Positions 1 to 506 of a stretch of DNA of 506 nt are shown piece after piece. Each line of letters begins with the position of its first letter. The stretch's first letter is position 1. Origin of the DNA: Escherichia coli (GTDB taxonomy: Bacteria; Pseudomonadota; Gammaproteobacteria; Enterobacterales; Enterobacteriaceae); NCBI RefSeq assembly GCF_003334255.1, contig NZ_QOWU01000230.1, one strand, 5' to 3'. Under the pieces are notes generated by a model. It saw only the letters and a program-made list of their open reading frames with translations, did not search any database and was not told the origin of the DNA. The position numbers and the translations under genes were made by a program.

Positions 1-5
1 CAAAT

Positions 6-34
6 GCCTGATGCGCTACGCTTATCAGGCCTAC
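6..34 (+). repeat. REP palindromic unit, Z2-type (copy 1)
   Basis: gcctgatgcgctacgcttatcaggcctac: 7-bp outer stem gcctgat/atcaggc (6-12 with 24-30), small internal mismatch, 2-bp inner stem with 3-nt loop, then the CTAC tail typical of REP. Matches the Z2 PU consensus as I recall it. Confidence 0.85.
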
Positions 35-51
35 AGATTCTTGCGCCATTC

Positions 52-85
52 GTAGGCCGGATAAGGCGTTCACGCCGCATCCGGC
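52..85 (-). repeat. REP palindromic unit, Y-type (copy 1), inverted relative to the Z2 unit
   Basis: The - strand reads gccggatgcggcgtgaacgccttatccggcctac: 7-bp outer stem gccggat/atccggc, 2x2 internal loop, 4-bp inner stem ggcg/cgcc with tgaa loop, CTAC tail. Matches the canonical Y PU / REP consensus as I recall it. Confidence 0.88.
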
Positions 86-98
86 AATGGTGACAAAT

Positions 99-127
99 GC
101 CTGATGCGCTACGCTTATCAGGCCTAC
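99..127 (+). repeat. REP palindromic unit, Z2-type (copy 2)
   Basis: Identical to 6-34, shifted by 93 bp. Confidence 0.85.
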
Positions 128-144
128 AGATTCTTGCGCCATTC

Positions 145-178
145 GTAGGCCGGATAAGGCGTTCACGCCGCATCCGGC
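145..178 (-). repeat. REP palindromic unit, Y-type (copy 2)
   Basis: Identical to 52-85, shifted by 93 bp. Confidence 0.88.
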
Positions 179-191
179 AATGGTGACAAAT

Positions 192-220
192 GCCTGATGC
201 GCTACGCTTATCAGGCCTAC
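192..220 (+). repeat. REP palindromic unit, Z2-type (copy 3)
   Basis: Identical to 6-34, shifted by 186 bp. Confidence 0.85.
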
Positions 221-237
221 AGATTCTTGCGCCATTC

Positions 238-271
238 GTAGGCCGGATAAGGCGTTCACGCCGCATCCGGC
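238..271 (-). repeat. REP palindromic unit, Y-type (copy 3)
   Basis: Identical to 52-85, shifted by 186 bp. Confidence 0.88.
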
Positions 272-284
272 AATGGTGACAAAT

Positions 285-313
285 GCCTGATGCGCTACGC
301 TTATCAGGCCTAC
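285..313 (+). repeat. REP palindromic unit, Z2-type (copy 4)
   Basis: Identical to 6-34, shifted by 279 bp. Confidence 0.85.
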
Positions 314-330
314 AGATTCTTGCGCCATTC

Positions 331-364
331 GTAGGCCGGATAAGGCGTTCACGCCGCATCCGGC
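331..364 (-). repeat. REP palindromic unit, Y-type (copy 4)
   Basis: Identical to 52-85, shifted by 279 bp. Confidence 0.88.
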
Positions 365-377
365 AATGGTGACAAAT

Positions 378-406
378 GCCTGATGCGCTACGCTTATCAG
401 GCCTAC
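378..406 (+). repeat. REP palindromic unit, Z2-type (copy 5)
   Basis: Identical to 6-34, shifted by 372 bp. Confidence 0.85.
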
Positions 407-423
407 AGATTCTTGCGCCATTC

Positions 424-457
424 GTAGGCCGGATAAGGCGTTCACGCCGCATCCGGC
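424..457 (-). repeat. REP palindromic unit, Y-type (copy 5)
   Basis: Identical to 52-85, shifted by 372 bp. Confidence 0.88.
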
Positions 458-470
458 AATGGTGACAAAT

Positions 471-499
471 GCCTGATGCGCTACGCTTATCAGGCCTAC
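471..499 (+). repeat. REP palindromic unit, Z2-type (copy 6; the window ends 7 nt after it, inside the linker)
   Basis: Identical to 6-34, shifted by 465 bp. The sequence stops at 506 within the tail-to-tail linker. Confidence 0.85.
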
Positions 500-506
500 A
501 GATTCT

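Follow-up and report, generated by a model that had tools for sequence, protein, structure and literature searches.

Between the genes yahG and yahI of Escherichia coli lies an intergenic cluster of repetitive extragenic palindromic (REP) elements, known in the literature as REP23, in which the number of repeat units differs among strains. The stretch of DNA considered here, 506 nt from contig NZ_QOWU01000230.1 of RefSeq assembly GCF_003334255.1 (referred to throughout as the window), is an allele of this cluster, with more identical copies of the repeat than any complete genome examined. The window is a single tandem array from position 1 to position 506, with a period of 93 nt, 5.4 copies, and 100% matches in Tandem Repeats Finder (TRF); comparison of the window with itself at a lag of 93 nt gives 0 mismatches, or 5.44 perfect copies of the 93-nt unit. 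The genes yahE, yahF, yahG, yahI, and yahJ are all on the minus strand of the window, so the two minus-strand reading frames that remain open along the whole array run in the sense direction of the transcript. One of these frames is annotated as the gene yahH in strain K-12. The preferred reading, with a probability of roughly 85%, is that the window is a non-coding array of bacterial interspersed mosaic elements (BIMEs) of the BIME-2 type, that its open frames are accidental, that its role is played at the level of RNA and DNA, and that no peptide read from it is under selection.

The repeat array and its locus

Each unit of the array combines a Y-type REP palindrome with a Z2-type palindrome in inverse orientation, joined by two kinds of short linker (Table 1). 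REP elements are imperfect palindromes of 30-40 nt that can form a stem-loop, and inverted-repeat arms are found at positions 6-30 and 56-85; two-unit segments fold at -84 and -86 kcal/mol, one value for each strand, with z-scores of -5.0 and -6.1 relative to shuffled sequences. REP elements have a conserved GTAG or CTAC at the foot of the palindrome (PMC3333891), and every unit has both (e.g., GTAG at 52-55 in Z2 and CTAC at 31-34 in Y). The Z unit of the window is 34 nt long, like the Z2 units that flank rayT in K-12, one of which it matches at all but 1 nt; Nunvar et al. assigned the rayT-flanking units to Z2, within BIME-2s (PMC2817692). The Y unit is a short-loop variant. Ton-Hoang et al. 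describe BIME-2 elements as inversely oriented Y and Z2 units that are repeated in tandem and joined by short linkers; their copy number at a given locus varies between strains, the linkers vary, and the REPs are conserved (PMC3333891). The yah array has the same alternation of inverse Y and Z2 palindromes, multiple tandem copies, and a strain-variable number of units. The linkers of the window are short (17 and 13 nt); the published classification of BIME-2 names the short linker motifs S and s, l or r. The array is of the ordinary BIME-2 kind, and no new type of system need be invoked for anything in the window. It is not a REPtron: the flanking genes are yahG and yahI, with no rayT (tnpA_REP) gene adjacent. 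The rayT gene of K-12, at 247.6 kb, is about 92 kb distant, and the yah array is a dispersed, non-autonomous copy.

The window finds matches in all 5426 complete E. coli genomes (5426/5426), at 8 to 45 places per genome, which is the dispersion expected of REP elements. The full-length best matches fall between yahG and yahI. Here the orthologous arrays occupy the interval from the yahG stop to the yahI start, and the only "gene" that they overlap is the disputed yahH. A linker-centred 39-mer from the window is present in 1775 of the 5426 genomes, at one to six places per genome; among 25 records from a spread sample, 22 had it at calls of YahH or of a hypothetical protein and three at sites without an annotated feature. 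The 39-mer is confined to the yahG-yahI interval, and the window is therefore an allele of one locus. None of the 5426 genomes has 5.4 identical units, and the best match to the 506 nt is about 98%. An exact 166-nt pattern, representing three window-type units in a row, has 0 matches in 100,044 species-representative genomes. Among metagenome contigs, the pattern matches one, OATN01000477.1, at the yah locus; the longest window-type run found, it has three full units and a partial fourth between proper yahG and yahI flanks. The perfect identity of the 5.4 copies may reflect recent expansion or, in part, an effect of assembly.

Some copies occur in unusual settings. A few plasmids carry parts of the yah region or segments with the window-type linker (14 plasmid places in the 39-mer search), among them the 193-kb plasmid NZ_CP126927.1 of avian pathogenic E. 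coli (APEC) E19035, which has part of the yah region with a carbamate kinase gene. In the XL1-Blue record NZ_CP081007.1 (4647681-4654151), a copy of the array lies close to the record's end in a patchwork of truncated fragments from insertion sequences (IS), RHS, phage, and tRNA, and the region looks mis-assembled. Matches in BL21(RP) and Rosetta2 are also odd, and one of them lies under a "phage tail tip protein."

Open frames and tests of coding

A period of 93 nt is exactly 31 codons, and each phase of the array thus repeats unchanged from unit to unit. The long open reading frames (ORFs) follow from this multiple of 3 together with the copy number. The initial annotation had described two minus-strand frames as open for the full length of the window, and this is what is found: frame A, read from base 506, and frame B, read from base 505, each contain 0 stops in 168 codons, and the third minus-strand frame contains 29. 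The plus-strand stops that it listed (TGA at 91, TAG at 53, and TGA at 9, each recurring every 93 nt) are exact, and a TAA at 62, in the same frame as the TAG at 53 and with the same recurrence, can be added to them. Both open frames have one in-frame ATG per unit, as had been noted, complementary to 78-80 in frame A and to 47-49 in frame B; frame B also has a GTG, complementary to 71-73. Of the two repeat peptides originally given, the second is correct to the letter. The first, HHCRMRRERLIRPTNGARICRPDKRSAHQAFV, has 32 letters and a wrong end, its tail having been copied from the other frame; the correct 31-residue unit of frame A is HHCRMRRERLIRPTNGARICRPDKRSASGIC.

Open phases of this kind are common in sequence of the same composition. 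Among 5000 shuffled units that preserved dinucleotide content, 91% had at least one stop-free frame and 35% had two or more on one strand. Two open frames on one strand are no more than chance would give. The two stop-free frames of the minus strand are an arithmetical by-product of the repeat, two phases of which are, as it happens, free of TAA, TAG, and TGA.

A direct test of coding comes from related arrays. The initial annotation took the open frames to be a by-product rather than a repeat-protein gene and proposed asking whether related arrays keep the frame; that comparison supports its reading. The panel consisted of 16 orthologous yahG-yahI loci, 15 of them REP-bearing, with 13 distinct unit variants. 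Copy number at these loci is 0, 1, 2, 3, 4, 5, or 6. Decomposition with exact anchors gives every full unit a length of 92 or 93 nt (22/31 with 93 nt and 9/31 with 92 nt); a 92-nt unit is present in eight of the 15 REP-bearing loci. The shorter units of other strains arise from a 1-nt deletion in the tail-to-tail linker, and each of them displaces the reading frame: frame A passes into frame B, and frame B passes into the stop-rich third frame, which is where the YahH protein of K-12 ends (VAREL*). Variation in copy number from 0 to 6, units of 92 as well as 93 nt, the resulting frame switches and stops, and the absence of synonymous bias all argue against coding.

The positions at which the 13 unit variants differ are concentrated in the linkers (12/30 positions, vs. 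3/63 in the palindromes; Fisher p = 4.7e-5). Seven of the 17 positions of the tail-to-tail linker and five of the 13 of the head-to-head linker are variable, compared with two of 29 in the Y REP and one of 34 in the Z2 REP, the last of these in the loop. By codon position, the variable sites are evenly spread (frame A, 5/4/6; frame B, 4/6/5). Of the changes, 6/15 are synonymous in frame A and 4/15 in frame B, and the neutral expectation is about one-third. Substitutions avoid the palindromes, not codon positions 1 and 2; conservation tracks the hairpins.

More than half of the sampled genomes either lack the ORF or have one of under 50 codons; in the spread sample of 54 loci, about seven lack REP elements, about 23 have a single unit, and in about 31 no coding sequence (CDS) is called. 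In strain AR_0067 (NZ_CP032261.1), the yahG-yahI spacer is 95 nt long, lacks REP elements, and has a different sequence; this length class was seen in about 7/54 genomes. Such a spacer could be an empty site or a replacement.

Other properties of the frames were compared with those of genes. The starts within the array have no Shine-Dalgarno match (duplex energies with the anti-Shine-Dalgarno sequence of -3.3 to +2.2 kcal/mol) and lie within stems. The codon-usage log-odds of frame A, -0.49, is like that of an off-frame reading, the real yah genes giving +0.19 to +0.50. Each 31-codon unit has four to five rare codons, where 1.3 would be expected. A Pfam search with the frame B repeat protein returned nothing significant. 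Seven products of the locus, annotated or claimed, were looked up by exact sequence in a collection of 15 billion proteins, and none is on record there. The frame of yahH is not kept, its substitutions show no synonymous bias, its presence does not follow that of its neighbours, and its product resembles no known family. The REP325 array serves as a control, since it is likewise built of Y and Z2 elements and has a period of 100 nt; it contains no ORF longer than 94 codons and no CDS.

One family search gave a nominal hit. Against NCBIfam NF033228 ("cell division inhibitor SidA"), which has a curated cut-off of 35 bits, the frame B product scored 49.5 bits and a 160-aa RefSeq product of the array scored 50.2 bits. 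Membership was rejected: the score is a sum of 13-residue partial matches over the repeats, and NF033228 is the sole NCBIfam family above its cut-off. A 29-codon plus-strand ORF is a further mechanical product of the repeat (Table 1), and its NCBIfam search gave no match.

Table 1. Repeat components, reading frames, and Rfam matches in the window
Feature	Positions	Strand	Basis or remark
Tandem BIME-2-type REP array, 5.44 identical 93-nt units	1-506	.	TRF; lag-93 identity; best full-length matches between yahG and yahI; linker 39-mer confined there
Y-type REP palindrome, 29 nt, GCCTGATGCGCTACGCTTATCAGGCCTAC, CTAC at end	6-34	+	Inverted-repeat arms; hairpin in fold
Y REP, further copies	99-127, 192-220, 285-313, 378-406, 471-499	+	
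Tail-to-tail linker, 17 nt, AGATTCTTGCGCCATTC, every 93 nt	35-51	.	Unit alignment; locus-specific
Z2-type REP palindrome, 34 nt, inverted, GTAGGCCGGATAAGGCGTTCACGCCGCATCCGGC, GTAG at start	52-85	+	Length match to Z2 units flanking rayT
Z2 REP, further copies	145-178, 238-271, 331-364, 424-457	+	
Head-to-head linker, 13 nt, AATGGTGACAAAT, every 93 nt	86-98	.	Unit alignment
Stop-free frame A, HHCRMRRERLIRPTNGARICRPDKRSASGIC per unit	3-506	-	Main frame of ORF X002 of enterohemorrhagic E. coli; codon usage off-frame-like
Stop-free frame B, TIAGCGVNALSGLRMAQESVGLISVAHQAFV per unit	2-505	-	Frame annotated yahH (b0322) in K-12; "protein YahH" or "hypothetical protein" in RefSeq
ORF of 29 codons, MPDALRLSGLQILAPFVGRIRRSRRIRQW, 5 repeats	4-93	+	Another mechanical product of the repeat
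Rfam RF02564 (naRNA4) match: Z2 REP, linker, Y REP	55-124	+	78 bits; gathering score 59.5
naRNA4 matches, further copies	148-217, 241-310, 334-403, 427-496	+	

Annotation history, ribosome footprints, and alternative readings

The initial annotation had warned that automated pipelines may call a protein here, and they already do: yahH (b0322) of K-12 is the second of its two frames, frame B. In RefSeq, arrays of about three units or more have a "protein YahH" or "hypothetical protein" annotated in frame B, and gene callers pick this frame because its codon usage is marginally gene-like. A review of the y-ome describes yahH as "filled with REP23 sites" (PMC11551758), and according to Neuhaus et al. 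2016, yahH was once dropped by annotators, who regarded it as a REP element that could not be translated (PMC4765031). That the annotation trap exists is thus already known and documented, and the locus has been discussed in print. The present analysis adds that the name yahH spans two frames, a population test that goes against coding, and the trap of the SidA name.

The second frame enters through X002, a 465-nt ORF that Neuhaus et al. 2016 reported with ribosome footprints in enterohemorrhagic E. coli (EHEC) EDL933 (PMC4765031). Reconstructed in an O157 genome, X002 starts at an ATG 18 nt past the yahG stop, runs in frame A until a 92-nt unit switches it to frame B, and encodes 154 aa. The "YahH" of K-12 and the "yahH = X002" of EHEC are different proteins from overlapping frames. 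In some lineages, a second type of yahG-proximal flank, agaaacaacgcgcactttacaga, is found after the last Z2 unit in place of atgaacatgtagg, and it shifts the frame A ATG to 28 nt past the yahG stop.

The footprints concern mostly frame A and not the annotated frame B. Their density is low: X002 had 56 reads per kilobase for each million reads mapped (RPKM), compared with a mean of 404 for annotated genes, a coverage of 0.61, and a ribosomal coverage value of 0.64, compared with 1.1 for annotated genes (PMC4765031). Reads were mapped with Bowtie at its default settings (PMC4765031), and because of this mapping, reads from multi-copy REP elements were not excluded. The study reports neither a reading-frame analysis nor mass-spectrometry peptides for X002 (PMC4765031). 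Stable REP hairpins could, moreover, survive nuclease treatment. The footprints may represent low-level ribosome entry and are not taken here as evidence for a gene. Ribosome profiling had been named initially as evidence that would count for translation of the repeat peptide. Such evidence nominally exists (PMC4765031) and is weak; the original wording that the frames are "almost certainly" a by-product was slightly too strong as regards ribosome occupancy, but not as regards the absence of a selected protein.

Several points weigh against a non-coding BIME-2 array with accidental frames. The RefSeq annotation of K-12 still carries yahH as a CDS, and X002 was judged "quite probably" translated (PMC4765031). 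The codon-usage log-odds of frame B is +0.12, just under the +0.19 of the weakest neighbouring gene. The anti-Shine-Dalgarno energies of yahE (-2.1 kcal/mol) and yahI (-3.2 kcal/mol) are also weak, so that the missing ribosome-binding site is not decisive. The polymorphism statistics are drawn from 16 loci and 13 unit variants and ignore phylogeny. Finally, the stabilizing and attenuating role proposed below is taken over from REP325 and other BIMEs, and the yah array is inverted relative to transcription when compared with REP325.

Three other readings have been considered. The first holds that the perfect 5.4-copy array is partly a product of assembly, in which the collapse or mis-joining of near-identical units has given the uninterrupted 168-codon frames. 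This is unlikely, yet several observations fit it: the 98% ceiling on matches in complete E. coli genomes, the absence of three successive window-type units from the species-representative set, the mixture of unit variants (92-nt units included) in real arrays, the patchwork assembly regions in which odd array copies sit, and the window itself, which has no flanks and is only 506 nt in total. Opposed to it are the three identical window-type units and partial fourth of the metagenome contig, flanked by both yahG and yahI; the up to six places for the window-type linker segment in some complete genomes; and the highly variable copy number at the locus. Even if it were true, the nature of the element would be unchanged.

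The second reading gives importance to the act of translation. Ribosomes that terminate at yahG and reinitiate at the frame A ATG beyond it would melt the hairpins, suppress Rho-dependent attenuation, and, in arrays made up only of 93-nt units, reach yahI, and the 92/93-nt polymorphism would tune yahI expression. The geometry is suggestive: the frame A ATG lies 18 nt past the yahG stop (28 nt with the other flank type) in 15/15 REP-bearing loci, and in the seven arrays made up entirely of 93-nt units, frame A ends 4 nt into yahI with an ATGA overlap. Such an overlap is the geometry of translational coupling but may be a coincidence; a single 92-nt unit makes the frame A ORF end 31 nt upstream instead. 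According to Espeli et al. 2001 (cited in PMC4765031), a BIME that is translated no longer causes Rho-dependent attenuation, and the reported footprints are mostly over frame A. However, the arrangement is intact only in 7/15 panel loci and, judged by locus-length class, in about 8/54 genomes of the spread sample, and is therefore not maintained. Its ATG lacks a Shine-Dalgarno match and lies hidden within the stem of the first Z2 element, frame A has off-frame-like codon usage, and the footprint data do not resolve the frame. This reading is improbable. A sharper form of it, in which the 92/93-nt polymorphism is a heritable switch, is a little more doubtful still: all-93 arrays would couple translation of yahI to that of yahG and cancel attenuation, and one 92-nt unit would uncouple the two genes. 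If this were so, the open frame would serve through being translated and not through its peptide.

The third reading, that yahH is a real gene for a repeat protein with its own function (in frame B as in K-12, or in frame A as in X002), is very improbable: annotation in K-12 and many RefSeq genomes, footprints in EHEC, and the slightly positive codon log-odds of frame B speak for it, but the annotation and the footprint claim concern different frames and hence different proteins, the ORF is missing or under 50 codons in more than half of the sampled genomes and is broken by 92-nt units in 8/15 REP-bearing loci, substitutions lack a synonymous bias and spare the hairpins, no Pfam family matches and the one NCBIfam score that exceeds its cut-off is a sum of partial matches, X002 has no reported mass-spectrometry peptides, and four to five of every 31 codons are rare.

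Function and relation to known systems

As a non-coding BIME-2 array, the yah repeat most likely acts at the level of RNA and DNA as an mRNA stabilizer and attenuator, by analogy with better-studied arrays. A promoter and terminator scan of the window gave 0 sites, and nothing supports independent transcription of either strand. In the yahEFG-IJ transcript, whose sense corresponds to the minus strand of the window, the REP hairpins would block 3'-to-5' exonucleases and so stabilize the upstream message, and the array would cause partial Rho-dependent attenuation ahead of yahI. Rho-dependent attenuation by BIMEs, abolished when the BIME is translated, is attributed to Espeli et al. 2001 (cited in PMC4765031). 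At the reference K-12 locus, the first REP hairpin begins 12-13 nt past the yahG stop, close enough that it may impede terminating ribosomes; when REPs are at a distance of less than 16 nt from a stop codon, ribosomes that are terminating are reported to stall and the upstream gene to be translated less (Liang et al. 2015, as summarized in PMC12306157). Some ribosomes may enter frame A at its ATG 18 nt past the yahG stop, yielding a peptide that is presumably not under selection. At the DNA level, the array may provide gyrase sites, as BIME-2 arrays are described as being bound and cleaved by DNA gyrase (cited in PMC2817692). Its copy number would change by slippage, by unequal exchange, or through the REP-associated transposase RayT, which cuts and recombines BIMEs in vitro and so offers a route to copy-number change (PMC3333891).

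The practical value of these findings lies in annotation. In a non-coding repeat with a period divisible by 3, ORFs arise that lengthen with copy number; the annotation of E. coli K-12 has carried such ORFs from its first release onwards, and the name yahH now extends over two reading frames. Pipelines that score whole proteins could give frame B a false functional name (SidA). The locus also provides a natural series, from 0 to 6 or more units and with 92- and 93-nt variants, that is suited to tests of the ratio of upstream to downstream expression.

The closest relative of the window is REP23/yahH (b0322) of K-12, which occupies the same locus and has the same Y and Z2 units and linkers, two units of the window type, and a YahH frame that is frame B of the window. 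It differs in having about four units of three variants, one of them the 92-nt unit that ends the ORF, whereas in the window the units, at least 5.4 of them, are all identical and 93 nt long, and the frame is not broken. X002 of EHEC EDL933 shares the locus and strand with the window and is a 465-nt, footprint-covered ORF of REP units; its change from frame A to frame B, which the window does not have, makes it different from the K-12 and RefSeq YahH protein.

The best experimental model is REP325, between yjdM and yjdN, which like the window is a tandem array of Y/Z2 pairs, about six (5.8) in number and set within an operon of two genes. With a period of 100 nt and not 93 nt, it forms no long ORF, and it has a longer Y variant and other linkers. 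REP325 is a partly Rho-dependent terminator and a stabilizer of the upstream mRNA, and the HU-dependent role in the nucleoid proposed for naRNA4 is disputed (preprint 10.64898/2026.03.23.713779). The naRNA4 model matches the window on the plus strand (Table 1); on the minus strand, which is the operon sense, the same intervals score 53.9 bits, under the threshold. The model has the orientation of the operon-sense strand at REP325 and of the strand antisense to the yah genes in the window, and the two arrays are therefore inverted relative to transcription. The window was rejected as an naRNA4 gene: the strand that passes is antisense to the operon, and the model recognizes in effect any Z2-linker-Y pair.

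Spurious ORFs are also known from other non-coding repeats (e.g., the CRISPR arrays treated in AntiFam), in which a periodic stop-free repeat becomes a "hypothetical protein" in databases (PMC9710616); the AntiFam paper does not mention REP translations (PMC9710616). Unlike these other repeat ORFs, the yah array has a published claim of ribosome occupancy. From BIME-2 arrays in general, in the classification of Gilson, Bachellier, and Hofnung and as described by Ton-Hoang et al. 2012, the window shows no essential difference, having in common with them the inverse Y and Z2 elements, short linkers, tandem copies, and variable number. What is peculiar to it is that its period is divisible by 3 and two of the phases are free of stops.

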